Part shown: one piece after another, positions 3,137-26,989 of the stretch
How positions within the stretch are numbered: position 1 is the stretch's first letter
Layout: each line of letters opens with the position of its first letter
Assembly: GCA_965222215.1 (NCBI GenBank)
Contig: OZ244931.1
Coordinates: 259,517-323,516, forward strand
Reading direction: 5' to 3'
Origin: Alphaproteobacteria bacterium
Lineage (GTDB): Bacteria > Pseudomonadota > Alphaproteobacteria > UBA6615
Length of the DNA: 64,000 bases
Notes under the pieces: generated by a model
Database searches by the model: none
What the model saw: only the letters and a program-made list of their open reading frames with translations
Told to the model about the DNA's origin: nothing
Position numbers and translations under genes: made by a program

Positions 3137-4567
3137 TCAGGCAGCGGGATCGAGAGCATCTTCGCGCGCCGCCGCGGCTTCGCGCGCGATCCGGCCGTAA
3201 AAGGCCTCGCGCAGGCCGGTCGCGTTTACTTCGCACATGGCGTGCAGTTCTCCGTCGATGGCCACCTGGAAGGCGCAGTGGGCGAGGCGCGCCTGCCCGG
3301 TCTCGCTCGCCAGTTCCTCCGGGCCCATGAAGTGATGGGCGGTGATCGCGAAACGGTGTACCGCGATCTGTCCCGTGACGGTCCGGCGGATCAGGGACAA
3401 GGGCGCGTCGGGCGCCAGCCGCTTCGCCCAGTCCCACGCCGCGCGTGGGAAATGCCAAAGGAGAAGCCCGGGCGCGCGCACCACCATCCCGGCCAGCCGC
3501 GCGACCGCCTCGGCGGGGCGGTCGGCCCGGAACGTCGCGCCGGGCAGGCGGTCGAAAATCGCGTCCAGCAGCCGGGCGTCGGCGGCGGAACTTTTGGGGC
3601 TCACCGGCAGGAACTGGGCCGGGCCTTCGCCGGACTGCACGCTGGCACCGATGACGAAGCGCGAACACTCGGGGTGACCCATCAGCCAGCGGTTCTCGGC
3701 CAGCCGGCCCGCATTCGTTTCCTCGATGTTGAGCCCGCGCGCGATCTCGACCCAGAGCGCCTCCGCGTCGATCCGTCCGATGCCGTTCTCGGTCCGGCCC
3801 ACGGGTGCGACCGGCAGGAAACCGACCATACGGAACACGTCCGCATTCGCCTGCATGAAGCGCACGATGTCGCCGACCTCGTGGAGATTATCGACGGTGA
3901 CGGTGACGGTCGACGCCACCCGCAACATGTGGCCGGTCTCCCGCCGGACCCGTCGCACGAGGTCCGCGAATTGCGCGCGCAACGGCATCAGGTCGGCTTC
4001 CGTGTCGGCCTGGCGGAACGCGCGGTCGTGACGGCCGCGCTGGGTGGTGTCGATGTGGAAGCTGATTTCCTCCAGCCCGCCCTCGACCATGAACCGCTTC
4101 AGCAGGTCCGGCTCGCGCAGGAAGGTATCGCCGTGGGTCATCAGCATGGGGATCAGCTCGATCGCGCGCGCGTGGCGCAGGATCGCGATCACCTCGTCCG
4201 GATCACGCAGCGAGACCTCGCCGTCCGTCAGCTGCACGTTGCCCCAGGGACCGAGATGGCGGCGCAGCATGTCGAGCTGCGCGGTCACGCCGGCGACCGG
4301 CAGCGCCGGAATACGGTTGGCGCCGTCGTTGAGGTAGCAGCCCCGGCAGGCGAAATCGCAGCGCGGCATCGCGCCGATGGTCGCGCCGCAGCCTTCCTCG
4401 TGCCGGCCGAGCATCTGGTGGGGGGTGCGGAACTCCGGCGCGATGTCGTTCCAGACAGCATCGAGCGATGCCCGCGTTTCAGGCGGCACCGGCTCGCGGA
4501 ACAGCCGCCAAAGGCGGGCGAGCCGCACCGGTTCGCGGTGTGTGGAGGTGGTCCCGAAACGTCCCAT
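3137..4567 (-). CDS. Radical SAM domain protein of 476 aa; family not recognised.
   Basis: Canonical CxxxCxxC cluster (PRCDFACRGCY) near residue 70. SD-like GAAGAAG lies upstream of the ATG. An 86-nt gap separates it from the response regulator on the same strand. Confidence 0.75.
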   Translation of the reverse strand: MGRFGTTSTHREPVRLARLWRLFREPVPPETRASLDAVWNDIAPEFRTPHQMLGRHEEGCGATIGAMPRCDFACRGCYLNDGANRIPALPVAGVTAQLDMLRRHLGPWGNVQLTDGEVSLRDPDEVIAILRHARAIELIPMLMTHGDTFLREPDLLKRFMVEGGLEEISFHIDTTQRGRHDRAFRQADTEADLMPLRAQFADLVRRVRRETGHMLRVASTVTVTVDNLHEVGDIVRFMQANADVFRMVGFLPVAPVGRTENGIGRIDAEALWVEIARGLNIEETNAGRLAENRWLMGHPECSRFVIGASVQSGEGPAQFLPVSPKSSAADARLLDAIFDRLPGATFRADRPAEAVARLAGMVVRAPGLLLWHFPRAAWDWAKRLAPDAPLSLIRRTVTGQIAVHRFAITAHHFMGPEELASETGQARLAHCAFQVAIDGELHAMCEVNATGLREAFYGRIAREAAAAREDALDPAA

Positions 4568-4696
4568 CGTGCCGTCTTCTTCCGCCGGAGTTCACGCCCT
4601 CGATCGGCGTTCCATCAGGGGGAAGGTTAGACGGTCCGGCGGGGCAGCCGGGATACAACTTGTCGTGTCGGGTGCGTGAAGAGGCGCGCAACACAC

Positions 4697-7386: not shown

Positions 7387-7450
7387 GCGTTGCCATCCCC
7401 GCGCGCTAATCTCCGCGCCAACAAACAAAACCCCTTCCGAGGAGACTCCC

Positions 7451-8821: not shown

Positions 8822-8848
8822 TAGGAGCAGTTGCGGTGGCAGGTCTTC

Positions 8849-8965
8849 CAACCCTCTCCTTCCACGGGGAGGAGAGGGTGGCGAGCACCGCGAGCCGGGT
8901 GAGGTGGGCGCCCCGGCTATCAGCTTGCAAACCCCACCTCACCCCGACCCTCTCCGCCCCCCTAT
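8849..8965. repeat. Family C repeat (copy C1). Core is CAACCCTCTCC...GGAGAGGGTGGCGAGCA(C/A)CGCGAGCCGGGTGAGG...CCTCACCCCGACCCTCTCC. A perfect hairpin TTGTCGCC-CTTGC-GGCGACAA follows.
   Basis: About 75% identity to the element at 10187-10312. The terminal inverted repeat is CCCTCTCC/GGAGAGGG. Confidence 0.6.
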
Positions 8966-9025
8966 TTGTCGCCCTTGCGGCGACAAGCGACGCAAAGGGT
9001 GGGCAGAGAGGGAGATGACCGCACC

Positions 9026-11647: not shown

Positions 11648-11726
11648 CAATGCCGTGACGTTGGGGTAGGGTTGTTCCCAACGGGTCGCCGCCCGCTACA
11701 ATCGCCGCGACTTCGAACGAGGCGTC

Positions 11727-12767
11727 ATGGAATCGATCTACTACGTGCTGTCGTGGCTCTGCCACCGGCGTTGCGACCATTGCTACGACACCCGCTTCCG
11801 CCCCTATGTGCGTGAGGAGAAGGCCACCGTGGTCAACGAGGCGCTGGCCAGCCATGCGCGGATTGTCGCCAACCTGCCCGACCGCATGACCTACCGGGAG
11901 ACCCCCGACGGCCCGGAACAGCCGGGGCGGATCATCCTGTCCGGCGGTGAGGTGCTGCTCGACGAGATCCGCGAACCGGTGCTCTACCCGGTAATGGACC
12001 TGCTCCGCGAGAAGTACGCGGACACCGGCGGGGTCCGGGTGGTGGTCCAGACCACCGGCGACCTCGTCACCGAAAAGATCGTCGACGAACTGCTCGACCA
12101 TGGCATGTGGCAGGTCTCGATTACCGGCATGGACGATTTCCATGTCGGTCATGAGGGCGAAAAGCGCCTCCCGCTGATCGGGAAGCTGACCGCCATGTTC
12201 GAGGCGGCCGGACTCAGCCCGACTGGGCGCCGCCACGACGGCACCGACGCGCGCGGCACGGTGACACCGGTCTATTCCTTCATGGGCGCGAACCCGGAAG
12301 AATGGATCGGCCCGATCTGGCCGCGTGGGCGCGCGTGGGAGAATGGGCTGTCCTCGGCAACGCTGGACGACAATTTCTGCAACCGCTGGTCGGGCGGGCT
12401 CAATTTTATGGAGCACGGCAAGGTCGGCTCCGAGGTGTCCATCGAGCCCAACGGCAACGTCTATCCCTGCTGCCTGAAGACGAAAGCGCCGCTCGGGAAC
12501 CTGACCGAGGAAAAGCTGGTCGATATTCTCGACAGCCTGCGCGGCCATCCGGCCTTTGACGCGATCAACGCCGGCGCCCCGGAGCGGATGGGCGAGGCCT
12601 TTGGCTGGGACGAGGCGACCTTCCTGCGCCACAGCGAAACGAAGACCCCGTCGGGCGAGACCTACCGCAATCTTTGCATCGGCTGCGATCGCTTCCACGA
12701 GCAGGTGCTCGGCCCCCTGATCGACGGCCTGCGCCGCGAGCGGCTGGCGCGCCGGGCGGCGGCATGA
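11727..12767 (+). CDS. Radical SAM / Cys-rich domain protein. Recalled as TIGR04167 and ArsS-like, the arsenosugar-biosynthesis radical SAM family.
   Basis: CxxxCxxC at residues 12-19 (CHRRCDHC). C-terminal Cys-rich segment with YPCC and CIGCDRF. SD GAGG before the ATG. Stop overlaps the next start (ATGA). Confidence 0.85.
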   Translation: MESIYYVLSWLCHRRCDHCYDTRFRPYVREEKATVVNEALASHARIVANLPDRMTYRETPDGPEQPGRIILSGGEVLLDEIREPVLYPVMDLLREKYADTGGVRVVVQTTGDLVTEKIVDELLDHGMWQVSITGMDDFHVGHEGEKRLPLIGKLTAMFEAAGLSPTGRRHDGTDARGTVTPVYSFMGANPEEWIGPIWPRGRAWENGLSSATLDDNFCNRWSGGLNFMEHGKVGSEVSIEPNGNVYPCCLKTKAPLGNLTEEKLVDILDSLRGHPAFDAINAGAPERMGEAFGWDEATFLRHSETKTPSGETYRNLCIGCDRFHEQVLGPLIDGLRRERLARRAAA

Positions 12768-13834
12768 CCTCCGGGACTGGCCGGATCGAGCGGGTCCGCG
12801 AGGCGCTGGCCGCGCGCCTGCGCGTGCCGCTGGAATACCTCACGCCGCTGCCGGATACAGGCCTCGCCCACGATCACGTGTCCATCGGCGAGACCGGGAC
12901 CCTCGCCCGCGTGCCGAAGCAGTCCCAGATGGGCCTGGAGGCGTCGGCGAACCTCGCCTACCAGGCGGCCTGCTTCGAGCGCGCGAGCGCCAGCGGCCAT
13001 GCGCCGCGCCTGCACGACGTCCTGCCGCCGGACGGCGCCCTGCCGATGGGCGCGCTCGTGGTCGAACAGATCGAGGGGCGGCCGCTGTCGTTGCCGGACG
13101 ATCTCGATGCGCTGGCCGACGCGCTGGCGGCGATTCATGCCCTGCCGCTTCCGCCCAGGGATGCGCGCGCGCCGCTCAAGAACCCGGCCGATCCCATCGC
13201 CGACACCTTCGCCGAAGTGACGGGGCAGTCGGCGTTCCTCGCCGATGCTGGGCTCGATCCCGACGCCGAAGCCCAGATCCGGGCCGAGCTCGAAGCGGCG
13301 CGCGCCACGCTCGCCGGGCCGGATCGCCCGCCGGTGTCCCTGATCGCGTTCGACGCGCATCCCGGGAACTACCTGGTCGACGGGACCGGCAAGGCGATCC
13401 TCGTCGACCTGGAAAAGGCCCGCTACGGTGCGGCCCCGTTCGATCTCGCCCATGCGAGCCTCTACACCTCGACGACCTGGGACGTGGACAGCCGCGCCGT
13501 GTTGTCACGCGATGACGTGCAGCGATTTCACACGCGCTGGCTGGCGACCGTTCCGGGCGAGCTTGCGGATGCCAGCGAAGCCTGGCTACTGCCCCTGCGG
13601 CGGATCATGTGGCTGTGGTCGGTCACCTGGTGCGCCAAGTGGCGGGTGCAGTCCGCGCCCGCGGCCCGGACGGACACGACCGAAAACTGGTCGGCGGACC
13701 TGAGCGAGGACGGGCTTGTCGCCCATGTCGCTGACCGGGTCGCCGACTATCTCGCCCCCGAGACCATTGCACAGGTGCGCGCCGACTGGTCCGGTACGGC
13801 CCCGGTGACGCCCGTGGCCGCGCTGGTGCGATGA
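12764..13834 (+). CDS. Aminoglycoside/choline-kinase-like phosphotransferase (APH/CHK fold).
   Basis: Brenner motif FDAHPGNYLV and Mg-binding DLE (ILVDLEKA). ATG overlaps the rSAM stop. Confidence 0.8.
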   Translation: MTSGTGRIERVREALAARLRVPLEYLTPLPDTGLAHDHVSIGETGTLARVPKQSQMGLEASANLAYQAACFERASASGHAPRLHDVLPPDGALPMGALVVEQIEGRPLSLPDDLDALADALAAIHALPLPPRDARAPLKNPADPIADTFAEVTGQSAFLADAGLDPDAEAQIRAELEAARATLAGPDRPPVSLIAFDAHPGNYLVDGTGKAILVDLEKARYGAAPFDLAHASLYTSTTWDVDSRAVLSRDDVQRFHTRWLATVPGELADASEAWLLPLRRIMWLWSVTWCAKWRVQSAPAARTDTTENWSADLSEDGLVAHVADRVADYLAPETIAQVRADWSGTAPVTPVAALVR

Positions 13835-13840
13835 AGCACC

Positions 13841-13927
13841 CGTCATTGCGAGGAGCGGAGCGACGAAGCAATCCAGTCTCACCGTCTTGTCCGCTCTGGA
13901 TTGCTTCACCTTCGGTTCGCAATGACG
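13841..13927. repeat. Family A repeat (copy A2).
   Basis: CGTCATTGCGAGGAGCGGAGCGACGAAGCAATCCAG...CTGGATTGCTTCACCTTCGGTTCGCAATGACG. Confidence 0.8.
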
Positions 13928-13994
13928 ACGGAATGACATTGAGGAGTGCCAGCGCTCGGCCATAGGTCGGGATGCCGGGTGAAAGGACAAAGTC

Positions 13995-15188
13995 ATGAAA
14001 CGTACTTTTTTCGCGATGCTTGCCATGTTGTTCGTTTGGGCCTCGCCCGCGCTGGCGCAGGACTGGGACGATGTTGTGGCGAAGGCCAGGGGTCAGACCG
14101 TTTTCTGGAATGCCTGGGCCGGGGACGAACGGATCAACGCCTATATCGCCTGGGCGGGCGAGCAGGTGCGCGAGCGCTACGGCGTCGAGGTGCAGCACGT
14201 AAAACTGTCGGACACGGCCGAAGCTGTCGCCCGCGTCGTTGCCGAGAAGGCGGCCGGGCGTACCGAGGCCGGTTCGGTCGACCTCATCTGGATCAACGGC
14301 GAGAACTTCGCGTCCATGAAACGCAACGGCCTGCTGTTCGGTCCTTGGACCCAGGACGCGCCGAACTACGCGAACGTCGACACTGAAAACAAGAAGACCA
14401 CCACCGTCGACTTCACGGTGCCCGTCGACAATCTGGAGGCGCCATGGGGCATGGCGCAGTTCGTGTTCATGCACGACACCGCCCATATGAGGGACACGCC
14501 GGGCTCGGTATCCGCGCTGCTCGAATGGGCGAAGGCGAACCCGGGTCGCTTCGCCTATCCGCAGCCACCGAACTTCCTCGGCACGACCTTCCTGAAACAG
14601 GCCCTGATCGAGCTGGCGCCGGACGCCGACGCCCTGCTGAAGCCTGTCGCCGACTTTGACGGCGTGACTGCGCCGCTGTGGGCCTATCTCGACGACCTGC
14701 ACCCGCACATGTGGCGGCGCGGCGAGGTGTTCCCCCAGAACGGTCCGGCGCTGCACCGCCTGCTCGACGACGGCGAGGTCTCCATCGCCATGTCCTTCCA
14801 CCCCGCCGAGGCGTCGGGCCTGATCGCCGAGGACAAGCTTCCGGACACAGTGCGGACCTTCGTGCTCGACAACGGAACCATCGGCAATACCCATTTCGTT
14901 GCGATTCCGTTCAACGCGAAGGCGAAGGAGGGCGCGATGGTACTGGCGAACTTCCTGATGTCGCCCGAAGCCCAGGCCCGCAAACAGGGCCCGGACGTCT
15001 GGGGCGACTTCACCGTGCTGGCCGTCGACCGGCTGCCGGATACGGCGCAGGCCGCCTTCGACGGGCTCGACATGGGCATCGCCACCCTGTCGCCGACGGA
15101 ACTCGGCGCGACCCGGCTCGAGCCGCACCCGTCCTGGGTCGCGGCGCTGGAGGACGAATGGGCGAAACGCTATGCGAGCGGGCGGTAG
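13995..15188 (+). CDS. ABC transporter periplasmic substrate-binding protein, YnjB-like.
   Basis: Signal peptide (MKRTFFAMLAMLFVWASPALA). Sequence resembles YnjB/TbpA-family binding proteins. Confidence 0.85.
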   Translation: MKRTFFAMLAMLFVWASPALAQDWDDVVAKARGQTVFWNAWAGDERINAYIAWAGEQVRERYGVEVQHVKLSDTAEAVARVVAEKAAGRTEAGSVDLIWINGENFASMKRNGLLFGPWTQDAPNYANVDTENKKTTTVDFTVPVDNLEAPWGMAQFVFMHDTAHMRDTPGSVSALLEWAKANPGRFAYPQPPNFLGTTFLKQALIELAPDADALLKPVADFDGVTAPLWAYLDDLHPHMWRRGEVFPQNGPALHRLLDDGEVSIAMSFHPAEASGLIAEDKLPDTVRTFVLDNGTIGNTHFVAIPFNAKAKEGAMVLANFLMSPEAQARKQGPDVWGDFTVLAVDRLPDTAQAAFDGLDMGIATLSPTELGATRLEPHPSWVAALEDEWAKRYASGR

Positions 15189-15207
15189 GGGGCATCCTTC
15201 CATGTCA

Positions 15208-15290
15208 TGCGCGGACTTGATCCGCGCATCTCGTCTCGGTCTGTGCGGAGATGCCCGGGTCAAGCCCGGGCATGACGATGACGGACGGGG
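15208..15290. repeat. Family D hairpin pair (copy D2). Hairpins ATGCGCGGA-CTTGA-TCCGCGCAT and ATGCCCGGG-TCAAG-CCCGGGCAT are separated by 21 bp.
   Basis: Two perfect 9-bp stems whose loops are reverse complements. The element lies between ynjB and ynjC. Confidence 0.4.
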
Positions 15291-15293
15291 TTC

Positions 15294-16994
15294 GTGACCC
15301 ATCGTATCTTCTCCCTCCGCTGGTTCCCGGCGCTGACGCTGGTGCTTCTGCTCGCACCCGTTGCAGCCGGGCTGATCGGCACGATCCTGCCGGCGCTCGG
15401 TTACCTCCCTGCGCTCGGCGGTAACTCCTTCAGTCTCGAACCCTGGCGGATGCTGTTCGCCGCACCGGGTATCCGGGAGTCCGTCCGCCTGTCGGTGTTG
15501 ACGGGGCTCGGGGTCTCCGCATTCTCGCTCGCCGTGGTGATCCTGTTCGTTGCGGGGTGGCACGGCACCCGGTCCTTCGCCCGGGTCCAGCGGCTGCTGT
15601 CGCCGCTGCTGTCGATCCCCCATGTGACCGTTGCCTTCGGCATCGCGTTCCTGCTCGCCCCGTCCGGCTGGCTGTTCCGGCTGACCTCGCCCTGGCTGAC
15701 GGGCTTCGAGCGGCCGCCGGACATGATCATCGTGCAGGACCCGGACGGGCTGGCCTTCATGGCCGGGCTGGCGCTCAAGGAAATCCCGTTCCTGTGCCTG
15801 ATGACCTTGGCCGCCATCGGCCAGGTCGATGCGGTCCGCACCCGGACCATGGCCCGCACGCTCGGCTACGGCACCACCACGGCCTGGCTCAAGGCCGTGT
15901 TCCCTCTGGTCTACCGACAGATCCGGCTGCCTGTCTTCGCGGTGCTGGCGTTTTCGGCCTCGGTCGTGGACGTGGCCATCGTGCTCGCGCCCTCGACCCC
16001 GCCGCCGCTGGCGGTGCAACTGCTGCGCTGGTTCAACGATCCCGAACTCGCCATGCGCTTCGTGGCGTCCGCGGGCGCGGTGCTGCAGCTTGCGGTGGTG
16101 CTGGCTGTGTTCGCGCTGTGGTGGCTCGGGGAGCGCGCGGTCGCATGTTTAGGACGAATCTGGATCCGCCGGGGGCACCGGGGCGTGCGCGATCGCGCCG
16201 TGCGCCTGGGTGCGGCGGGCGCGCTGACGGTCAGTTTCCTTGCGGCCTTCCTCGGGCTTCTGAGCATGGCGGTCTGGTCGGTGGCCGGGCGCTGGCGGTT
16301 CCCGGACGGGCTGCCGTCGCGGTTCTCCGTCGACCCGTGGATCGACAATGCGCCGCGCCTTGGCGAGGCCGCACTGAACACGGCGACCGTCGGGCTGGCG
16401 GCCGCGCTGGTGGGGCTTGTCCTGGCTCTCGGCTGCCTGGAGAACGAGACCCGGTTCGGGCGGCGCGCCACGAACCGCGCGCTTCTGCTGCTCTATATCC
16501 CGCTGCTGGTGCCCCAGATCGCGTTCCTGTTCGGGGGGCAGGTTTTGCTGGTGATGAGCGGCCTCGACGGCGCGTGGATCGCCGTGGCCTGGGCGCACCT
16601 GGTATTCGTTCTGCCCTATGTCTTCCTGTCGCTCGCCGATCCCTACCGGGCGTGGGACGAGCGCTACGCCCGTGCCGCGCGCTGTCTCGGGGCCTCGCCG
16701 CTTCGGGTGTTCTGCCGGGTGAAGCTGCCGATGCTGTTGCGGCCGGTCCTTGTCGCTGTGGCGGTCGGTTTCGCGGTCTCCGTGGGCCAGTACCTGCCGA
16801 CGCTGTTCGCGGGTGCGGGGCGCGTCGACACGCTGACGACGGAAGCGGTCGCGCTGGCCTCGGGCGCCGACCGGCGCGCCATCGGGGTGTATGCGCTGGC
16901 CCAGATGTTCCTGCCGTTTCTCGCCTTCGCGCTCGCCACGGCCGTCCCGACCTGGCTCTTCCGGAACCGTCGCGGACTGCGGGTCACCGCTTGA
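15294..16994 (+). CDS. ABC transporter permease with two fused permease domains, YnjC-like.
   Basis: 566 aa with ~12 TM helices and two binding-protein-dependent transport (EAA-like) regions. GTG start. Confidence 0.85.
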   Translation: MTHRIFSLRWFPALTLVLLLAPVAAGLIGTILPALGYLPALGGNSFSLEPWRMLFAAPGIRESVRLSVLTGLGVSAFSLAVVILFVAGWHGTRSFARVQRLLSPLLSIPHVTVAFGIAFLLAPSGWLFRLTSPWLTGFERPPDMIIVQDPDGLAFMAGLALKEIPFLCLMTLAAIGQVDAVRTRTMARTLGYGTTTAWLKAVFPLVYRQIRLPVFAVLAFSASVVDVAIVLAPSTPPPLAVQLLRWFNDPELAMRFVASAGAVLQLAVVLAVFALWWLGERAVACLGRIWIRRGHRGVRDRAVRLGAAGALTVSFLAAFLGLLSMAVWSVAGRWRFPDGLPSRFSVDPWIDNAPRLGEAALNTATVGLAAALVGLVLALGCLENETRFGRRATNRALLLLYIPLLVPQIAFLFGGQVLLVMSGLDGAWIAVAWAHLVFVLPYVFLSLADPYRAWDERYARAARCLGASPLRVFCRVKLPMLLRPVLVAVAVGFAVSVGQYLPTLFAGAGRVDTLTTEAVALASGADRRAIGVYALAQMFLPFLAFALATAVPTWLFRNRRGLRVTA

Positions 16995-17050
16995 CTTCGA
17001 TCGGCGCCAGCGGCCCACTACGGCCAACCCATTCAACGGAGAGTTCCACC

Positions 17051-17698
17051 ATGAAACTTTACGGATACTGGCGGTCGCTGGCCGCGTTCCGCGTGCGCAT
17101 CGCCCTCAACCTCAAGGGCCAGCCCTTCGAGGTCATCTCGACAGACCTCATCAAGGGCGACCAGTTTGACCCCGAGTATCTGAAGCTCAACCCGCAGGGC
17201 GTGGTGCCGACACTCATCACCGACGACGGTGTGGCGCTCGGTCAGTCGATGGCGATCCTTGAATATCTCGACGAGGCCTATCCCGAGCCGCCGCTGATGC
17301 CGACCGACCCCGTGGCCCGCGCCCGGGTGCGCGCGCTGTGCATGATTACGGTGGCCGACACCCACCCGCTGGTGGTGCCGCGCATCCGCAAGTACATCAC
17401 CCAGGATTTGGGCCACAGCGAGGACGAGCTGAACGCCTGGATCGGCAACTGGACGAAGAAGGGCCTCGAAGCGATCGAGGCCCATCTCGTCGCCCATGCG
17501 GGCACCTACAGCGAGGGCGATGAGATCAGTCTCGGCGACCTCTGCGTCGTGCCGCAGGTCGGCGCCGCGGCGCTGTTCAAGGTGCCACTCGACCCCTATC
17601 CGACGGCCAAGCGCATCTTCGACACCTGCATGGACAACCCGGCCTTCTTCGACGCCCGCCCGCAGGCCCAGCCGGACTTCCCCGAAGACATGAAGTAG
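17051..17698 (+). CDS. maiA: Maleylacetoacetate isomerase (GST zeta class).
   Basis: N-terminus MKLYGYWRS...VPTL and the GST fold. SD GGAGAG 9 nt before the ATG. The ORF-track frame is over-extended. Confidence 0.85.
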   Translation: MKLYGYWRSLAAFRVRIALNLKGQPFEVISTDLIKGDQFDPEYLKLNPQGVVPTLITDDGVALGQSMAILEYLDEAYPEPPLMPTDPVARARVRALCMITVADTHPLVVPRIRKYITQDLGHSEDELNAWIGNWTKKGLEAIEAHLVAHAGTYSEGDEISLGDLCVVPQVGAAALFKVPLDPYPTAKRIFDTCMDNPAFFDARPQAQPDFPEDMK

Positions 17699-17709
17699 GC
17701 GGCCCCATC

Positions 17710-18747
17710 GTGCGGTCGTTCGCCCGAGCTCTCGGGGTTTTCTCCATGGCCGGACTGCTGGCCGCTACGGGCGGGCCGCCGGTGCGCGCGCAGGCGGGGT
17801 TCCATCCGGAACGAATCGCCGACGTGGTTGCGCAGGCGCAAGCCCTCGAACGCCTCAATGCCCTGATCGTCGCGCGCGGCGGCGAGGTGGCTGTTGCCGA
17901 AGCCTTCCGCGGGCCCGGCCTCGACACGCCGGTGAACGTCAAATCGGTGTCCAAGTCAGTCATCGCGGCGCTGGTCGGCATCGCGATCGACCGGGGCGTG
18001 CTCGAAGGCCCTGATCAGACGGTCGGAGATTTGCTTGCCGACCGGATTCCGCCGGGGGCGGACCGCGGTGTGGCGGAGATCACCGTCGGCAACCTCCTGT
18101 CGCTGCAGTCGGGCCTCGACCGCACATCGGGGCGCAACTACGGGCGCTGGGTGCAGAGCGACGACTGGGTCGCGCATGTGTTGTCGCGCCCCTTCGTCGA
18201 CCGGCCCGGCGGGCGAATGCTCTATTCCACCGGGAACACGCATCTTCTGTCGGCGATCCTCACGCGCGCGTCGGGCCGCAGCACGCTGGCGCTGGCACGG
18301 GCGTGGCTCGGCACGCCCCTCGGGATCGATATTCCGGCCTGGGACCGTGATCCGCAGGGTATCTATCTGGGCGGCAACAACATGGCGTTCTCGCCGCGCG
18401 ACCTGCTCCGCTTTGGAGAGACCTACCGGCGCGGCGGCGTGTTCGATGGCGAACGGGTTCTGTCCGAGGACTGGGTTCGAACCTCATGGACGCCGCGCAC
18501 CCGCTCGCCGTTCTCGGGTGATGCCTACGGCTTTGGCTGGTTCCTGCGCGATGCCGGCGGCGGGCGACTGGCGGCCTACGCGCGCGGCTTCGGCGGCCAG
18601 TTCGTGATCGTTGTGCCTTCGCTGGAGATGACCGTGGTCGTCACGTCCAGCACAGGCACGCGCCTGCGCACGGACGGCTACGGCGATGCGCTATGGTCGC
18701 TGGTCGAGGACGGACTCATACCCGCCGCGCTGGCTGACTACCAGTAG
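17710..18747 (+). CDS. Serine hydrolase / beta-lactamase-family protein (class C-like, secreted).
   Basis: Signal peptide, SxxK motif (SVSKS) and a YxN-like element. The 3' end overlaps ycbK convergently by ~10 nt. Confidence 0.8.
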   Translation: MRSFARALGVFSMAGLLAATGGPPVRAQAGFHPERIADVVAQAQALERLNALIVARGGEVAVAEAFRGPGLDTPVNVKSVSKSVIAALVGIAIDRGVLEGPDQTVGDLLADRIPPGADRGVAEITVGNLLSLQSGLDRTSGRNYGRWVQSDDWVAHVLSRPFVDRPGGRMLYSTGNTHLLSAILTRASGRSTLALARAWLGTPLGIDIPAWDRDPQGIYLGGNNMAFSPRDLLRFGETYRRGGVFDGERVLSEDWVRTSWTPRTRSPFSGDAYGFGWFLRDAGGGRLAAYARGFGGQFVIVVPSLEMTVVVTSSTGTRLRTDGYGDALWSLVEDGLIPAALADYQ

Positions 18748-19310
18748 CGGACCCGTCCCACGTCGACATGGACGAAGGCCGACTTGTAGTAGGCGCCGAC
18801 GCCGCCGAGCCTGAGCGACTTCGCGGCCCTGTGCACCTCTTTCGTGGACCGGTCGCCGACGCGGATGTCGATCGCCATGCCCTTCATGTGCAGGCTCTTC
18901 CGCGCGACGCCGCCGCTCTTGGTGGCGAGCCTGGCATTGGTCTTCGGCGACCGGTAGCCGGAGATCACCCGAAACTCCGCGTCGGTGTCGAGCTTCCCGC
19001 GCAGCTCATGCAGCAGGTCCATCAGCTTCGGGTCAATCGGATACACCTCACCGGTGCGGTGATCGCGCAGGTGGCGGTTGATCTCCGTCAGCGCGTCGGG
19101 GATATATTCTCCGTTTTCCCAGAACGTCGTGCGAAGCGTCTCGCCCGTGTGAAGGTGCCGGAAATCCAGCGTTTTCGGCCGAACGAACGCCGCCTGCGCG
19201 ATCGATGGAACGATCGCAGGCGCGGCAAACGCCGCTGCGCCGGCAAGAAAATTGCGGCGGCCGAGCGCGATGGAATCGCCGATCCCGCCAACGACACCCG
19301 TTTTCCCCAT
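18738..19310 (-). CDS. DUF882 (YcbK-family, peptidase M15-like) protein with a Tat signal.
   Basis: Twin-arginine motif RRNFLAG. Conserved core HMKGMAIDIRV. Confidence 0.85.
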   Translation of the reverse strand: MGKTGVVGGIGDSIALGRRNFLAGAAAFAAPAIVPSIAQAAFVRPKTLDFRHLHTGETLRTTFWENGEYIPDALTEINRHLRDHRTGEVYPIDPKLMDLLHELRGKLDTDAEFRVISGYRSPKTNARLATKSGGVARKSLHMKGMAIDIRVGDRSTKEVHRAAKSLRLGGVGAYYKSAFVHVDVGRVRYW

Positions 19311-19463
19311 GCTCTTTCCCCAATCCTGAACGGAGCAAAATTCGGTTGCGGGCCTTTTAGGGCGATTGTCGCTCGGCGTGAAGTATCAAAAGTTAATTCA
19401 CGTCGGAAATCGCAATCCTGCCACGTTTCGCGATGCGCCGGGCTGCGCTGTCCCGCACCGGCT

Positions 19464-21080
19464 TCATGTTTTTTTCAACGCGGCCGCGAGGTCGCGGTCG
19501 CGTCCGTAGATATCCTTTCGGAAGTGGACAGTCCCGTCTTCGCCGGTCCAGGCCGTGAAATAGGCGAGATGCACGGGCACCGGCTCGGCGAGGCGCACGA
19601 TGCGGGTCTCGGTTCCGGCCAGTGCCGCGTTCAGCGCGTCTGTCGTCGGTTCGGTTTGCGTCGAGAGGAGAAATTCGGCCAGGGCCCTCGCATCCTCGAC
19701 GCGGATACAGCCCGAACTGAAGGTGCGGACCTCCCGTCCGAAGAGTTCGCGTGCCGGCGAATCGTGCAGGTAGACGTCGTGCTTGTTGGGGAACATGAAC
19801 TTGATGCGCCCGAGCGCGTTCTTCGTGCCCGGGTCCTGGCGGAGCTTGTAGGGAAAGCCGCCTTTGTCCAGGGCGTTCCAGTCGATGCGTTGCGGATCGA
19901 GCCTGCGCGCGTCTGCGCCCCAGCCGTCGAGCACCGCGAAGCCCTCGCTTGCAAGGTAGCCGAGGTCGGCCCTGATCTTCGGGAGCAGATCTTTCACGGC
20001 AATTGTCGGCGGGACGTGCCAGTAGGGGTTCACCTCCATGTACCGGATTGCGTCCGAGAAGACCGGTGTGCGGCGGTATTCGCGCCCGACCACCACGCGC
20101 ATGCGCTTGCGGATCGTGCCGTTCACCACGCCGTGGAGTTCGAAGGCCGCAATGTTGACCAGCACATGCCGGGTGCCGAGATCGTCCGGCATCCAGCGCC
20201 AGCGCTCCATGTTCCACTTGATCTGGGAAATCCTGTTCTCGACCGGAACGTTGAGCGCGGCGAGCGTCGCCGGCCCGACGATGCCGTCCGCGTCCAGGCC
20301 GTGGCGCGTCTGGAACGTGCTCACGGCCTGCGTCAGGGAATGGTCGAATGTCTCCCCGGTCGTATCGGAGCCGGGCAGGTCCTCTGTCGCCGCCAGCCGC
20401 GTTCGCAGCGCCGCCACGCGCGGGCCGGCGGTGCCCGCCTCCAGCTTCGGACCGGAGGAAACGGCCGACCAGCCGCCGCGCCCGGCGATTCGCCGGTAGG
20501 CCGCGAGACTGTCTCGGAGATTGCGGTAGACCGGATTGGCCGGCGCGTACCGGGCGGCGACCGACCGGATATCGTCCCCTGCGACGAGACGCTCCAGCGC
20601 TTCGGCGAGATCGAACGCCGGGTGGGCCACGAACAGATCCGGGTCGAGCCGCGCGGGGGCGACCCGCCCCGTGCGCAGGTCGCCCAGGTACCGGAGCAGC
20701 GCATCGGACAGCGCGATCTCGAACCGGGCCGCCGCGGCGCGATTCTCGAATCTCTCCGCGGGCGCGCCGGCGATCCGGTAATCCTCCGGCTCGAGGCCCT
20801 CGATGTCCGCGCGCCGAAGGAGTTCGCGCGCGGCCCCGGCCTTCTCGCTCGGGCGACGCGCATCGCTCCAGTGGAGCTTGAAATCGCGCGCGGCGTAGAA
20901 TTCGCGGATCGCGGCGAGCCGGTCCGTTGCCGGTCCGGCGTCGACCGCGCCGACGCTCGCGGCGAGCTGCTCCTGGAGTTCGCGTTCTCCCGCCGCCGAG
21001 GTCGGGGCAGCCGAAAGCACGGCCCAGCCGAGCAGGAAACAGGAAAGAACGCGCATCCGCGTGCGTATATTGTGTGACAT
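19464..21080 (-). CDS. L,D-transpeptidase, YcbB-like, with a peptidoglycan-binding domain.
   Basis: YkuD catalytic region (HDSP...SSGCIRV). PG-binding repeat (TFQTRHGLDADGIVGPATLAALN). Signal peptide. Confidence 0.85.
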   Translation of the reverse strand: MSHNIRTRMRVLSCFLLGWAVLSAAPTSAAGERELQEQLAASVGAVDAGPATDRLAAIREFYAARDFKLHWSDARRPSEKAGAARELLRRADIEGLEPEDYRIAGAPAERFENRAAAARFEIALSDALLRYLGDLRTGRVAPARLDPDLFVAHPAFDLAEALERLVAGDDIRSVAARYAPANPVYRNLRDSLAAYRRIAGRGGWSAVSSGPKLEAGTAGPRVAALRTRLAATEDLPGSDTTGETFDHSLTQAVSTFQTRHGLDADGIVGPATLAALNVPVENRISQIKWNMERWRWMPDDLGTRHVLVNIAAFELHGVVNGTIRKRMRVVVGREYRRTPVFSDAIRYMEVNPYWHVPPTIAVKDLLPKIRADLGYLASEGFAVLDGWGADARRLDPQRIDWNALDKGGFPYKLRQDPGTKNALGRIKFMFPNKHDVYLHDSPARELFGREVRTFSSGCIRVEDARALAEFLLSTQTEPTTDALNAALAGTETRIVRLAEPVPVHLAYFTAWTGEDGTVHFRKDIYGRDRDLAAALKKT

Positions 21081-21121
21081 GGCGCGTTATATGGGTCGCG
21101 CCGGGCCGGGTTTCACGGGGC

Positions 21122-21748
21122 TCAGGGCGTTTTCGTCTTCTCCGCGCCCGCGGCGTCCATCAGTTGCTCCAGCACCTCGTAGGGCTGGGCACCGACGACG
21201 CCCTTGCCGTCCGCGACGTAGGTCGGCACGCCGGTTACGCCATACTGGCGTGATTTCTCCCAGTCGGCGTCGACCGCCGCCTCGAAAGTCCGGTTCTCCA
21301 GCACATCGCGTGCGGCCGCTCCGTCGAGTCCCACGCCTTCGGCGATCTCCACGAGAAGGTCGATATCGCCGATGTTCTTCTTGTCGACGAAATAGGCCTG
21401 GAACAGCTTCATGTGGATGGCATCGCCGCCGGGCTGGGTGTCGGCCCACTTGCCGAGCTCCTGCGCGAGCCGGCTGTTGTAGGTGTGGGTCCGTTCCGCG
21501 TAGGGCAGGCCCTCCTCGTCCATCAGGCCCTTCATGCGTTGGTACATGGCGTCGAGGTCGACGTCGCGCCCGGCGAACAGTTCGGCCAGCGACTTGCCCT
21601 CCATCGGGGTATCCGGGTGGAGCGGGAAGTGGACGGTCCGGATGTCGACGTCGTAGGTCTCGCGGATTTTTTCAACACGCCCGGTGCTGAGGTAACACCA
21701 CGGTCAGACGTAGTCCGAGAAGACCTCGAGAACGATGGGATCGGACAT
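21122..21748 (-). CDS. DsbA/FrnE-like thiol-disulfide oxidoreductase with in-frame TGA at 21704-21706, aligned to the first Cys of the CPWC motif. Candidate selenoprotein, or else a pseudogene.
   Basis: Reading upstream of the track ORF (21122-21604) in the same frame gives MSDPIVLEVFSDYV-[TGA]-PWCYLSTGRVEKIRETYDVDIRTVHFPLHPDTP-MEGKS... That matches FrnE/DsbA N-termini (SDIACPWCYIG). ATG at 21748. The total of 208 aa is normal for the family. Confidence 0.55.
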
Positions 21749-21841
21749 AGGGAATGCCTTTCGATTCGAATGAGCGCCAACAATAGCAGATTCTCCGCTG
21801 CGACGGTTAGGATGGCCCCAACACAAAACAGGGAGCCGAAC

Positions 21842-22285
21842 ATGTCCGAACTCACCGTGCCGTCGCGCAAACTGACCCATGACGGGGTCCGCAAGCTGAT
21901 CGATGCCGCCGTCGCCGCCGCCGACGAAATGGGCGTGCCCATGGGCATCGCCGTCGCCAACGACGGCGCACGGGTCGTCGGCTACCTGCTGATGGACGGT
22001 GCCCGGGTGCTGGCGATGGAATCGGCCAGCGCCAAGGCGATGACGGCGGCCAACCACCGAATGCCGACCCATGCCATTCCCTACGATGTCGGCATGGGGC
22101 TGGCGGTCTCGACCCGGGGGAAGGTGATTCCGCTCAAGGGCGGGGTGCCGATTGTCCTCGACGGCCATTGCGTCGGCGGGATCGGCTGCGGATCGGGCAC
22201 CGGCGAGCAGGATCTCGTGGTGGCCAGGGCCGCGCTTGCGGCCATCGGCGCCGAGATTCCCGACGACGACGTGAAGGAAGGCTAG
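21842..22285 (+). CDS. GlcG/HbpS-like (DUF336) heme-binding protein.
   Basis: SD AGGGAG before the ATG. Conserved GGxP/GGIG core (GGVPIVLDGHCVGGIGCGSG). Confidence 0.8.
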   Translation: MSELTVPSRKLTHDGVRKLIDAAVAAADEMGVPMGIAVANDGARVVGYLLMDGARVLAMESASAKAMTAANHRMPTHAIPYDVGMGLAVSTRGKVIPLKGGVPIVLDGHCVGGIGCGSGTGEQDLVVARAALAAIGAEIPDDDVKEG

Positions 22286-23508
22286 GCGGCGCGTCGTTTG
22301 CGGACCAGCACCGCGAAGAACAGCCACGACAGGAAGGTGCACCCCAGCATGACGGCGCCGACCTGGAGGAACGACGTCTGGGTCAGGGTCGAGACAACGA
22401 CCGTCGCGATCGCCCCGCCGCCCATCTGGACGAAGCCGCCCAGCGCGGCAGCGGAGCCGGCGGCGGCCGGCTCCACGGCGGTGAGCGCGCCGGCCAGGCT
22501 GTTCGGCACGAGAAACCCCGATCCGACGGAGTAGAAAAACAGCGGCGCAATCAGCGCATAGGGCGAGTCCATGCCCGACAGCGACAGGCCGACCAGCGCG
22601 GCGGTGCACAGGCTGGCGACGATCGCCCCGGCGGGGATCATCCGGTCGCGCGAAATGCGCTGGGAGACGCGGCTGGAGATGTAGTTGCCGACAACGTAGC
22701 CGGCGGGAACGGACATGATGAACAGCCACAGGTCTTCGGGCGATACCCCCATGATCACGATCAGGGCGAACGGCGCGCCGGCCAGGAAGGACTGGAACGC
22801 CGCGCCCATCGAGGCCGTCGACAGGCTGTAGCCCATGAACCGCCCCATGCGGAGCAGGCGCAGATAGGTCCGTGCCAGGGCCTCGACCTGGGTGAACCGC
22901 CGGCTCCCGACGGGCAGCGTTTCCTCCAGCGTGACGAACGTCGCCAGCAGGGTTGCCGCGCCGAGCCCGGCGGTGAACCAGAAGCTCGCCTCCCAGCCAA
23001 AGCCCGTTTCGAGTTGCCCGCCCAGCAGCGGCGCCAGCATCGGCGCGAGCGCCAGCGACATGCCGAGATAGGCCATTGCACGGGTCGCGGCCGGGCCGTC
23101 GGTGGTGTCGCGCACGATGGCGCGTGCCACCACGATACAGGCGCACCCCCCGATCGCCTGGACGACGCGCGCGGCGATCAGCCAGCCGATAGTGGGCGCC
23201 AGCGCGCAACCGGCGCTGGCGAGCGTGAACAGGATCAGCCCCGCGATCAGCGGCCGCCGCCGCCCGATCGCATCCGAGAGCGGACCGACCACGAGTTGGG
23301 CGAGCGCGAAGGCGCCGAGATAGGCCGACACGGTCATCTGTACGAGGGCCTGGCTGGTGCCCAGATCGCCCGCCATGGACGGCAGCGAGGGCAGGAAGAT
23401 CGTGATCGCCACCTGGCTGGTCACCATCAGTGTCACGAGCAGGGCCATCGGGGCGCGTGGCGCGGCCGTGACATTCGGGTCTGGGTCTGAAACAGGCGAA
23501 CGTGGCAT
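22282..23508 (-). CDS. MFS transporter, Bcr/CflA drug-resistance subfamily.
   Basis: Twelve TM helices with MFS loops. The ORF-track N-terminal 124 aa are R/P-rich and probably untranslated. The start could instead be ATG 23508 or ATG 23448. Confidence 0.75.
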   Translation of the reverse strand: MPRSPVSDPDPNVTAAPRAPMALLVTLMVTSQVAITIFLPSLPSMAGDLGTSQALVQMTVSAYLGAFALAQLVVGPLSDAIGRRRPLIAGLILFTLASAGCALAPTIGWLIAARVVQAIGGCACIVVARAIVRDTTDGPAATRAMAYLGMSLALAPMLAPLLGGQLETGFGWEASFWFTAGLGAATLLATFVTLEETLPVGSRRFTQVEALARTYLRLLRMGRFMGYSLSTASMGAAFQSFLAGAPFALIVIMGVSPEDLWLFIMSVPAGYVVGNYISSRVSQRISRDRMIPAGAIVASLCTAALVGLSLSGMDSPYALIAPLFFYSVGSGFLVPNSLAGALTAVEPAAAGSAAALGGFVQMGGGAIATVVVSTLTQTSFLQVGAVMLGCTFLSWLFFAVLVRKRRAA

Positions 23509-24023: not shown

Positions 24024-24340
24024 ACGGCGCGAGCTGTAGGCGAGACTTCCGTTGATGTCCCACAGGGCGCCGGAAACGTAGCTCTCGCCGGACGTGAGCA
24101 GAAAGGCCGTCGGCCGGAGCAGGGTGCCTTCCATCATCGGCGTGTCGATGGGCCCCGGGGAAGATTGCGTGAGGGGTACCGAAGCACAAAAAAGCGTTGC
24201 GGAAACAAACGGCTGCGCCGCTTGCTGGTTGCGTTCGTATCGCCGCCTTGAAATCGCCTTTTGGCGTTATGCCGTGCGCCACCACATCGAACCGACATTG
24301 CCGGCCGCGCGGACGGCCCGGGATCGAGGGGAGATCGGCG

Positions 24341-26989
24341 ATGAATTTTCTTCTGGTTGTGGTCCTGCTGGTTCTGATCGGCGGACCGATCGCCGGCATC
24401 GTGGCCTGGGTCAAGGTACGCAGGCTCGAACGCGAGGTTCACCGGATGAGGCTGGCGCTGGGATTGCCGGAGTTCGCCGATCCGCCGCCTGCGCCCGCGC
24501 AGCCCGTATCGACCGAGGTCTCCGAAGCGGAAAAGCCGCGCGAATCGGATAAACCCGCCCCGTCGTCCGCCGCGTTGCCGGTGCCTTCCCCCGCACATAC
24601 CGTGGTGCGGCGCGGCGTCGATTTCGAACGCCTGTTCGGCACGCGCCTTGCGGTCTGGCTCGGCGGCCTGGCCCTCGCGGTGGGCGGGTTGTTCCTCGTC
24701 AAATACTCCATCGACCAGGGCCTGCTGACGCCGCTCAACCGGGTCATCCTCGGCGGCATCGCCGGCCTGGCCCTGCTGCTGGCCGGCGGGCTGGTGCGCG
24801 AGCGGCCGCGGATCGCGAACGGGCGGCGCATTGCCCAGGCGCTGACCGGGGCCGGCATTGCCGTGCTGTACGTGTCGCTGTTCGCCGCCAGCGATCTCTA
24901 CGGGCTGCTGCCGCCGGCCTTCGCGTTCATCGGCATGGTCGTGACCACGGTTTGCGCCGTCGGCCTGTCGATCCGCCAGGGGATGCCCGTGGCGGTGCTC
25001 GGTATCGTCGGCGGCTACGCGACGCCATTACTCGTCGGTGCGGCGGAGCCGAACAGCACCGTCCTGTTCACGTACCTGTTCTTCCTGTTCGCGGGCCTTC
25101 TCGCGGTCGTGCGACAGCGCGGCTGGTGGCCGTTGGCAATGGTCAGCCTGGCGGGTGCGCTGATGTGGGTGCCGCTGTTCCTGAGAAGCGGCGCGGACGC
25201 CGAACCGGTGATCCTGATCGGCTACCTCGTGGCCGTGGCCGCCGTGGCGCTCGCCGGGAGCTGGTATGTCTATCGCGACACGTTGAATGCCCTGTCGCGT
25301 ATGGAGGACCTGCAGCGCAGTGTCCCGTTCTGGTTCACCTGGGGCGCGATTCTGGGTGTGGTCGCGCTTGCGGGTGTCGTCGTCGGGCACGCCGGCTACG
25401 GGTTGGACGCGTGGCTGATGTTCGCCGTCGTCGCGGCGGCGGCTGTCGGCCTGATGGTGCTCGACGCGCGGCTGTACGGTCCGGCGGCGCTGGCGGCCGG
25501 TGCCGTCACGATGACGGTGCTGCTGTCCTGGCTGCCGGATGCACGCGCGGGCGACCTCTGGTACGCCGCCGTATTCGGTCTCGGGTTCGTGGCCAGCGGG
25601 TATGCGGCGCTGGCCCGCGTGAACCGGCCGCTGTATCCCGCCATCCTCACGGGCAGCGCCAGTCTCGCCTTCTACCTGTTCGCTTTCTTCCAGGCGCGCG
25701 ACCTGGGGGTCGAGGCGCCGTTTCCGCTCTTCTGGGGCCTGCTGGCGTTCGCCATCGCCGGTGGCGCGATCGTCGCCCTGCGGTTCGTGATGGAAAAACC
25801 GGGTGCGCCGGACGGCGGGCCGACGCGCACGCGTGACTATATGGTCGCGATCTTCGCGGTGGTTGCGGCGGCCAACATCGCGTTCGGGCTGACCGTGGAG
25901 ATCGAGCAGCAGTTTCTGGGCATCGCCTTCGCCGCCCAGCTTCTGGCGGTGGCTTGGATCAACGCGCGCCTGCGCCTGAAGGTTCTCGACGGCATCGCGC
26001 TGGCCCTGTCGGCGGTGTTCGCCGTGCTGCTGGTACCCCAGATGCTGCTGCTGGTCCGCCTGTCCGTCGTCGGCCTCGTCGGCACCGACCTGAACATCCA
26101 GGAATCGGTGCCCATCGTGGATTCGCCGATCTTCCAGCTCGGCCTGCCGGCGGCGCTGTTCCTGTTCACGGCGCGCGAGCTGCGCCGCGCCCGGGACGGC
26201 CGATTCGTGTTCTGTCTGGAGGCGGCGGCCATCGGCCTCGCCGGGTTGATGGGCTACTACCTGACCCGCCACGCCTTCAACATCGACGCGAACGTCCTGC
26301 TGGTCGAGGCCGGGTTCCTCGAACGGGGCGTGACGACCAGCGTGCTGTTCGCCTTCGGGCTGGCCTGCCTGTGGCTGGGCCGTCGTTTCGCCCGCCCGGC
26401 GTTTTCGTGGAGCGGCGTGGCGCTCGCCGGGGTGGCGATCTTCCGGGTCGTCTATTTCGACATATTGTTCGCCAACCCGGTCTGGTCCCCGGACCCGGTG
26501 GGCGGCTGGGCGGTCCTCAACCCGTTGCTGCTGCCCTTCGGCCTGACGGCTGGTTTCGCGTGGCTGCTGTCGCGCGAGCTGGTCCATCTGGATCGTGCGC
26601 GCTGGTCGGTGTGGCTTCGCGCCTTCACGGTGTTCCTGCTGTTCGTGCTTGTCACCATGAACGTCCGCCATATCTTCCACGCGCCGCTGCTCGACGGTCC
26701 CTTCGCCGGGAACGCGGAGATCTACGCCTACTCGGTCGTCTGGCTGCTCTTCGGGCTCGCGTTACTCGGGGTCGGATTCCGGACCCGCGACCGCATGGTG
26801 CGTTTCGCGTCGCTCGCGGTGATGCTGCTGGCCGTCGGCAAGGTGTTCCTGTTCGACGCGGCGGAGACGGAGGGCCTGTTCCGGGTGCTCTCGTTCGTGG
26901 CGCTGGGCCTCAGCCTGATCGGTCTCAGCCTGTTCTACACGCGCTATGTCCTGCGGCAGGACGACCGGAAAAACCTCCCCCCTGCCTGA
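24341..26989 (+). CDS. DUF2339-like large polytopic membrane protein (~880 aa, more than 25 TM helices).
   Basis: SD GGGGAG before ATG 24341. A short cytoplasmic N-terminus with an amphipathic helix is followed by an A/P-rich linker and then many TM helices. Confidence 0.7.
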   Translation: MNFLLVVVLLVLIGGPIAGIVAWVKVRRLEREVHRMRLALGLPEFADPPPAPAQPVSTEVSEAEKPRESDKPAPSSAALPVPSPAHTVVRRGVDFERLFGTRLAVWLGGLALAVGGLFLVKYSIDQGLLTPLNRVILGGIAGLALLLAGGLVRERPRIANGRRIAQALTGAGIAVLYVSLFAASDLYGLLPPAFAFIGMVVTTVCAVGLSIRQGMPVAVLGIVGGYATPLLVGAAEPNSTVLFTYLFFLFAGLLAVVRQRGWWPLAMVSLAGALMWVPLFLRSGADAEPVILIGYLVAVAAVALAGSWYVYRDTLNALSRMEDLQRSVPFWFTWGAILGVVALAGVVVGHAGYGLDAWLMFAVVAAAAVGLMVLDARLYGPAALAAGAVTMTVLLSWLPDARAGDLWYAAVFGLGFVASGYAALARVNRPLYPAILTGSASLAFYLFAFFQARDLGVEAPFPLFWGLLAFAIAGGAIVALRFVMEKPGAPDGGPTRTRDYMVAIFAVVAAANIAFGLTVEIEQQFLGIAFAAQLLAVAWINARLRLKVLDGIALALSAVFAVLLVPQMLLLVRLSVVGLVGTDLNIQESVPIVDSPIFQLGLPAALFLFTARELRRARDGRFVFCLEAAAIGLAGLMGYYLTRHAFNIDANVLLVEAGFLERGVTTSVLFAFGLACLWLGRRFARPAFSWSGVALAGVAIFRVVYFDILFANPVWSPDPVGGWAVLNPLLLPFGLTAGFAWLLSRELVHLDRARWSVWLRAFTVFLLFVLVTMNVRHIFHAPLLDGPFAGNAEIYAYSVVWLLFGLALLGVGFRTRDRMVRFASLAVMLLAVGKVFLFDAAETEGLFRVLSFVALGLSLIGLSLFYTRYVLRQDDRKNLPPA

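Follow-up and report, generated by a model that had tools for sequence, protein, structure and literature searches.

When an otherwise intact gene carries a stop codon precisely where the nucleophilic cysteine of its active site should be, is the gene broken, is the sequence wrong, or is the codon read as an amino acid? This question is raised by a gene on the minus strand (21748..21122) of a 64,000-nucleotide stretch of contig OZ244931.1, referred to here as the window, from an uncultured marine alphaproteobacterium. The gene contains a DSBA domain, and an in-frame TGA at 21706..21704 occupies the position of the first Cys of its CPWC motif. As judged from comparative sequence analysis, the gene very probably encodes a 208-residue cytoplasmic thiol-disulfide oxidoreductase of the FrnE/DsbA type, which would carry selenocysteine (Sec) as the nucleophile of the motif. 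Five lines of evidence support the recoding of the TGA: the alternation of Sec and Cys codons among orthologues, purifying selection in the coding stretch 5' of the TGA, a covarying selenocysteine insertion sequence (SECIS), linkage of the gene to tRNA-Sec in relatives, and the existence of a published UxxC selenoprotein family.

An in-frame TGA stands in place of the first active-site cysteine

Read directly from the sequence, the gene (21122..21748; this and all following features of the gene lie on the minus strand) comprises 208 codons and an ordinary terminating TGA at 21122..21124. The start codon of Met1 is an ATG at 21746..21748, and in the alignment most orthologues also start here, with M-[SAT]-[ED]-P. 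A Shine-Dalgarno-like GAAAGG, which may serve in ribosome binding, lies at 21757..21762, 8 nt 5' of the ATG. Around the internal TGA (21704..21706, codon 15) the sequence reads TAC GTC TGA CCG TGG TGT TAC, and translation across it yields MSDPIVLEVFSDYV*PWCYLSTGRVEKIR..., where the asterisk marks the TGA; the 208 codons hold no further internal stop. The mechanical list of open reading frames (ORFs) places the gene start at Met49 (MEGKS, 21604), 144 nt 3' of the ATG. Met49 is the first in-frame start past the TGA in the window, where codon 23 is GGG and thus no start codon. A first-pass annotation, made from the sequence alone, had pointed out that these 144 nt are open but for the TGA and had taken the ATG with its GAAAGG as the start of a protein of 208 residues; sequence and translation bear out both statements.

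With a Cys at the position of the TGA, the translation matches the Pfam DSBA profile PF01323 almost from end to end (profile positions 2-190 of 191; E = 4.7e-37, 128.1 bits vs a cut-off of 25.6), and the domain reaches full length only if translation continues past the TGA. The nearest solved structure is FrnE from Deinococcus radiodurans (PDB 5cnw; E = 4.6e-25), with residues 2-204 of the query aligned to residues 9-222 of the chain. In this alignment the TGA falls opposite the first Cys of the FrnE sequence SDIACPWCYIG, which agrees with the placement of the TGA at the redox-active Cys in the first-pass annotation. Translation, domain match and structural alignment together point to a complete selenoprotein gene with a predicted U15-P-W-C18 active site. 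The resolving Cys of this UxxC motif, Cys18, is encoded by a TGT at 21695..21697. It is the sole Cys of the window protein and is invariant in all 79 sequences of the comparison described below.

The TGA alternates with cysteine codons among orthologues

For the comparison, 80 related loci were taken as DNA from species-representative genomes; two of them were unreadable, which left 78. The codon aligned with the window TGA is TGA in 59 of the 78 orthologues and TGC or TGT in the other 19, so that inclusion of the window gives 60 TGA forms and 19 Cys forms. This is the Cys/Sec alternation that the first-pass annotation had suggested looking for in relatives, and it is the basis on which codon 15 is read here as a Sec codon at the nucleophilic Cys position of CPWC. 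The TGA loci derive from metagenome-assembled genomes of marine and soil Alphaproteobacteria/Rhodospirillaceae, from Burkholderiales and other Betaproteobacteria, and from one Gammaproteobacterium. A TGA that recurs in 59 species-level genomes goes far beyond chance. In every one of them the 14 codons 5' of the TGA form an uninterrupted frame for ...LE[VI]F[ST]DYV, and the TGA is shared down to ~62% protein identity without any frameshift or additional stop. The nearest genome (L001, JAEPNS010000033) is collinear in gene order with window positions 11013-22422, including ABC transporter components, MepK, an L,D-transpeptidase and the GlcG-like gene. As the nucleotide identity over this region amounts to only ~79-87%, L001 and the source of the window belong to one uncultured group of marine Alphaproteobacteria but to different species.

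Per-codon entropy was used to read the selection acting upstream of the TGA. Within codons -8 to -1 relative to the active-site codon, the first and second positions are near-invariant and the third position varies by 0.7-1.5 bits, with the exception of the Tyr codon at -2. The Cys forms display the same pattern 5' of their active-site codon. The stretch ahead of the TGA is therefore translated in frame with the remainder of the gene and is under purifying selection, a result that neither a pseudogene nor a sequencing error nor an internal restart would account for.

A neighbour-joining tree resolved a large Sec clade, outside of which falls one clade consisting entirely of Cys forms (GDNRVKK type). 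Nested within the Sec clade are two further Cys lineages (Cys codon at about locus position 10043 or equivalent): L054, which shares 88% identity with the Sec form L040, and the group L036/L042/L051/L068 in the betaproteobacterial branch. From their positions in the tree, these lineages apparently represent two independent Sec-to-Cys reversions.

A covarying hairpin 3' of the TGA tracks the TGA

We then consider the mRNA segment in which a SECIS would be expected, that is, the 45 nt from the TGA onward, which gave an alignment (A1) of 44 distinct sequences. Two mutually exclusive hairpins can form in this segment, hairpin A (columns 7-13/19-25) and hairpin B (columns 17-23/29-35; consensus UCAGYAC-CGKGC-GURUUGA), of which RNAalifold picks B on alignment A1. 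In the window, hairpin B occupies 21672..21690, with the 5' arm UCAGCAC at 21690..21684, the loop CGGGC at 21683..21679 and the 3' arm GUGUUGA at 21678..21672. It spans 14-32 nt past the UGA, and its loop begins 21 nt past the UGA.

The pairing of hairpin B is retained in 99% of the alignment cells, and one-sided changes do not occur in it. Double compensatory changes are found at three of the seven pairs and amount to 18 cells (U-A/C-G 30:14, A-U/U-A 41:3 and A-U/U-A 42:1). None of 500 shuffles reached the covariation score of B, and pairing dropped to 23-45% when the register was slid. To the main covarying pair, a Ser codon (AGC/AGT) contributes its third position and a Val/Ile codon (GUU/AUU) its first. 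As a synonymous Ser site is here coupled to a Val/Ile position, protein-level selection does not explain the covariation.

Codon usage and pairing both differ between the two forms of the gene. Third-position entropy is 0.12-0.29 bits at codons +5 and +7 to +10 of the TGA forms and 0.86 bits at the covarying codon +6, compared to 1.0-1.7 bits at codons +5 to +10 of the Cys forms. All seven pairs of B are present in 57 of the 60 TGA forms and six pairs in the other three, whereas the Cys forms have two to five pairs. In the nested Cys lineages L054, L036, L042, L051 and L068, the hairpin has decayed to 4, 2, 2, 5 and 2 pairs, respectively. Being intact in the TGA forms and decayed in the Cys forms, the hairpin thus tracks the TGA. 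The hairpin segment of the window is identical to that of L001.

The consensus model for bacterial SECIS elements (bSECIS) specifies a loop of 3-9 nt, an upper stem of 4-16 bp, a distance of 16-37 nt between UGA and loop, and a minimum free energy (MFE) of at most -7.5 kcal/mol, together with a G in the first two loop positions that is usually followed by G or U (PMC13188914). Hairpin B lies inside all of these limits, with a loop of 5 nt, a stem of 7 bp, a UGA-loop spacing of 20 nt (columns 4-23) and an MFE of -11.4 kcal/mol for the 45-nt segment of the window, where it forms part of both the MFE and the centroid fold. Its loop, C-G-[G/U]-G-C, has an invariant G at column 25 and G or T at column 26, in keeping with the loop rule. 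The family deviates from the model in that it has no conserved lower helix. Like the SelB-dependent element of E. coli fdhF, hairpin B lies within the coding sequence. The sequence of the window element does not resemble that of the fdhF element.

The first-pass annotation had drawn another hairpin, a UGGUG/CACC pairing that begins 4 nt past the UGA, and had described it as lying closer to the UGA than classic bacterial SECIS elements. This pairing, hairpin A (window 21700..21694 with 21688..21682), can indeed form. As a SECIS candidate it was rejected: it shows no compensatory changes and a flat shuffle control, and it is broken in six cells, exactly at the columns where B is compensated. The claim of unusual proximity does not stand either, as the 20-nt spacing of the hairpin at 21690..21672 is within the 16-37 nt range.

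An additional lower stem (columns 6-9/42-45; window 21701..21698 with 21665..21662) is paired in 57% of the cells, and columns 6/45 hold C-G in 15 sequences and G-C in five. Some lineages, including that of the window, may extend the SECIS helix in this way. As a general SECIS feature the lower stem was rejected on the basis of the 57% pairing; it is at best lineage-specific.

Independently of the hairpin, the Tyr codon -2 (window 21710-21712, minus strand) is TAC in 59 of the 60 TGA forms (0.12 bits), compared to an entropy of 0.95 bits in the Cys forms. As this codon sits outside the SECIS hairpin, its uniformity may mean that sequence context on the 5' side influences how the UGA is recoded, or that a pairing has escaped recognition.

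Genes for selenocysteine decoding adjoin the family in some Betaproteobacteria

In four betaproteobacterial loci (L039, L073, L074 and L077), a tRNA-Sec gene lies 0.5-3.5 kb 5' of the TGA-type gene. Each was identified by ARAGORN (anticodon UCA) and by the Rfam family RF01852 (71-77.5 bits vs a gathering score of 47). Locus L073 (5699-10615) shows the most complete arrangement, in which selA, selB and tRNA-Sec are followed ~530 bp further on by the DsbA-like gene. The selA product scores 393.9 bits with TIGR00474 (cut-off 267.9) and that of selB 373.5 bits with TIGR00475 (cut-off 242.25). Using the L073 SelA and SelB sequences as queries, tblastn was run against the window and all 80 loci. Matches were restricted to betaproteobacterial loci, among them L039, where selB was also found 5' of tRNA-Sec. 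Since tRNA-Sec adjoins the gene in these four relatives, together with selA and selB in L073 and with selB in L039, the family is physically linked to Sec decoding. By extension, we infer that the genome from which the window derives possesses the Sec machinery as well.

Within L073, the selB ORF (7489-9486) contains the tRNA-Sec gene (9374-9469) in its 3'-terminal part. The selB tblastn matches in L039 and L074 overlap tRNA-Sec in the same manner; the regions concerned in the other loci are L039 1-1152, L074 198-293 and L077 1008-1103. A selC-nested-in-selB arrangement has been described for Alpha- and Gammaproteobacteria, a finding attributed to Mukai 2021 in PMC13188914. The loci reported here resemble that arrangement and occur in Betaproteobacteria.

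Recoding compared with read-through, gene decay and sequencing error

Several observations weigh against the selenoprotein assignment. Neither tRNA-Sec nor any other tRNA or Rfam family was found by a tRNA scan and an Rfam scan of the 64-kb window. The tblastn searches with L073 SelA and SelB detected neither selA nor selB in the window or in the alphaproteobacterial flanks; selD was not searched. Three scans of the window yielded no credible second TGA-recoded gene, although these scans are weak, as two of the three missed the TGA of the DsbA-like gene itself and are thus insensitive to Sec near termini. With respect to folding energy, the window segment is no stabler than shuffled sequences (z = -0.40; equal or greater stability in 60 of 200 shuffles), and the 45-nt segment of many relatives reaches only -5.9 kcal/mol, weaker than the -7.5 kcal/mol of the bSECIS model. 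Stability therefore lends no support, and the case for the SECIS rests on the comparative data. Finally, nearly all selenoprotein families of this kind are bioinformatic predictions (PMC13188914).

The alternative that survives best, improbable as we consider it, has the UGA read through without Sec, by a near-cognate tRNA that inserts Trp or Cys and with stimulation by the hairpin, or else has an internally started protein as the functional product. Selenium incorporation by members of the family is a prediction, and no sel genes were found around the window gene, both of which would fit read-through of this type. However, the TGA alternates with nothing but Cys codons at the catalytic position, as Sec/Cys pairs would, the hairpin conforms to the SelB-type bSECIS model, and tRNA-Sec adjoins the gene in four genomes, accompanied by selA and selB in L073. 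An internal start would be available to the many relatives that have GTG or ATG at codon 23. Yet the 14 upstream codons are intact in the window, where codon 23 is GGG, and a product begun after the motif would be without a redox centre.

Slightly less probable still is that the gene is a nonsense-mutated pseudogene, dead or dying after its Cys codon turned into TGA. A single base change takes TGC or TGT to TGA, gene callers treat the gene as shortened, and sel genes were not seen in the window. However, decay of this kind would have to account for a TGA that 59 further species-level genomes share, down to ~62% identity and without frameshifts or extra stops, for purifying selection both before and after this codon, and for a TGA-specific hairpin that is kept through compensatory changes. 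A restart at Met49 would moreover delete strand beta-1 and the whole active site. At the level of the family, the pseudogene explanation is effectively refuted, and the preference of the first-pass annotation for recoding is upheld by the five lines of evidence named at the outset. A sequencing or assembly error over a true TGC or TGT, for which a one-base difference would suffice, is the least plausible of all, given the identical TGA in 59 independent assemblies from many studies and an intact TGA-associated hairpin in the window that genuine Cys forms have lost.

Reassignment of TGA throughout the genome was likewise rejected: TGA is the commonest terminator in the window, where it ends 19 of the 37 well-supported ORFs, the DsbA-like gene among them.

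A FrnE-like catalytic domain with a predicted Sec15-Cys18 redox pair

We further compared the predicted selenoprotein to FrnE and to periplasmic DsbA. FrnE of D. radiodurans (PDB 5cnw, 5cp1 and 5e59) is a cytoplasmic DsbA-like disulfide oxidoreductase/isomerase. It shares with the window protein the position of the xPWC motif, the lack of a signal peptide and, by alignment, the helical-insert architecture. The two differ in that FrnE has Cys where the window protein is predicted to have Sec, and in the length of the chain, which is 260 aa in FrnE and 208 residues here. The C-terminal tail of FrnE bears a second CxxxxC motif. Tail and motif are absent from the window protein, which stops at residue 208, and the alignment ends at chain residue 222. 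By its sequence, the window protein thus appears to resemble the catalytic domain of FrnE but is not, strictly speaking, an orthologue of it.

Nor is the window protein a periplasmic DsbA of the E. coli type, with its signal peptide and CPHC motif: it has no leader, its motif reads UPWC, and chain 4jrr, a periplasmic DsbA, gives a marginal match (E = 9.7e-4). The active site is reached after just 14 residues (MSDPIVLEVFSDYV), with no hydrophobic leader, and the protein is predicted on these grounds to be cytoplasmic.

According to the pathway established for bacteria (Böck and colleagues), a SelB.GTP.Sec-tRNA(Sec) complex would bind the apical part of the mRNA hairpin UCAGCAC-CGGGC-GUGUUGA and, in competition with release factor 2, would supply Sec once the UGA occupies the A site. 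The final UGA of the same gene, which is not followed by such a hairpin, would terminate translation normally. By analogy to thioredoxin-fold UxxC selenoproteins and to FrnE, Sec15 would act as the attacking nucleophile and Cys18 would resolve the intermediate as a selenenylsulfide. The product may accordingly be pictured as cycling between a selenolate/thiol form and the Sec15-Cys18 selenenylsulfide, thereby reducing or isomerising substrate disulfides.

A known selenoprotein family that is shortened in public gene calls

The family itself is not new. A 'DsbA-like protein' (COG2761, UxxC, nine sequences with predicted SECIS) was reported in 2005 as a new selenoprotein family from the Sargasso Sea metagenome by Zhang, Fomenko & Gladyshev (PMC1088965). 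In 2006 the family was found in a small number of genome sequences (PMC1794560), and a 2026 review lists 'DsbA-like protein form 1, PF01323, UxxC' (PMC13188914). The window gene shares with form 1 the PF01323 domain, a UxxC motif with Sec first, widespread Cys homologues and TGA-containing orthologues. The SECIS directly 3' of the UGA, the G in a small apical loop and the origin from marine bacteria are likewise common to both. By COG, Pfam domain and motif we find no substantive differences between the window gene and form 1, of which AACY01178397 and NIP15863.1 are the published representative sequences. The window gene is thus probably one more orthologue of the DsbA-like selenoprotein family that has been known since 2005. 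What the present analysis adds to the published family is the support of the SECIS by covariation, the linkage to sel genes and tRNA-Sec, and the Sec-to-Cys revertants.

In the protein-database search, every Sec-type relative among the matches listed is called in a shortened form, of 184-185 aa or less. The closest matches of a protein search come from ENA, JGI, NCBI, Tara and Logan samples. Among the matches listed at 72-93% identity, nearly all are 184-185 aa long and two are 168 aa, so that at most ~88% of the query is covered. The shortened calls among the matches listed (clusters P0001-P0020, P0022, P0024-P0027, P0112 and P0116) all begin with (M/V)R(V/I)EK, eight residues past the motif, and the GTG or ATG at codon 23 of many relatives has been taken as the start by the gene callers. 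The matches listed at 59-71% identity are nearly all of full length (~200-215 aa) and read SDYVCPWCYL. The shortened relatives carry the names 'hypothetical protein' or 'predicted DsbA family dithiol-disulfide isomerase', the latter a JGI label that we take to be a COG2761-type name.

NCBIfam contains no model for the DsbA-like family; its sole match to the window protein is to an unrelated thioredoxin-like (seleno)lipoprotein model (41 bits vs a cut-off of 190). The lack of a model probably explains why public gene calls are systematically shortened. There is hence practical value for annotation, as no NCBIfam model would let the Prokaryotic Genome Annotation Pipeline (PGAP) call the Sec codon and the names given by JGI and NCBI are generic. 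The 60 TGA forms and 19 Cys forms, together with the covarying SECIS, the revertants and the sel linkage, could seed both a family model and a SECIS covariance model.

The interest that remains in the gene therefore lies in this annotation gap, in a compact and well-supported SECIS, in the natural revertants and in the location beside tRNA-Sec and sel genes in some Betaproteobacteria. The gene also marks the uncultured marine alphaproteobacterium as a probable user of selenium. As the gene adjoins tRNA-Sec in several Betaproteobacteria and recurs as a TGA gene in many aerobic marine Alphaproteobacteria, it is conceivable, if rather unlikely, that it is the principal or even the only selenoprotein for which these lineages keep a Sec-decoding apparatus. 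If correct, their selenoproteome would be minimal, with a cytoplasmic disulfide oxidoreductase at its centre instead of formate dehydrogenase, and Sec decoding there would make use of an unusually compact SECIS of 7 bp that is often less stable than the standard search model requires.

Other genes in the window

The neighbours of the DsbA-like gene in the window are ordinary, namely an L,D-transpeptidase (19464..21080), MepK (18738..19310), a GlcG-like protein, a Bcr/CflA transporter and ABC-transporter components. Three large plus-strand ORFs, 24173-26989, 11670-12767 and 12560-13834 (938, 365 and 424 codons), have good coding composition but matched nothing in NCBIfam at the thresholds applied. 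Between the second and the third there is an overlap of ~200 nt in different frames, so that one of these two may be spurious or mis-delimited.

The first-pass annotation had alluded to a radical SAM gene (3137..4591, minus strand), of a family historically named 'selenodomain', and had cautioned that it does not establish the use of selenocysteine. We agree. Its similarity to the tetraether lipid synthase Tes (56 bits vs a cut-off of 450) and to the radical SAM (seleno)protein TrsS (50 bits vs 490) is far below threshold and it holds no in-frame TGA candidate, and it was rejected as a sign of selenium use. The amidohydrolase at 7280-8821 (plus strand) scores 82.7 bits with the model for a 'putative selenium metabolism protein SsnA' (cut-off 455.5), a similarity that probably reflects only the shared TRZ/ATZ fold; with NF006056 (PRK08204) it scores 524.9 bits, above the cut-off.

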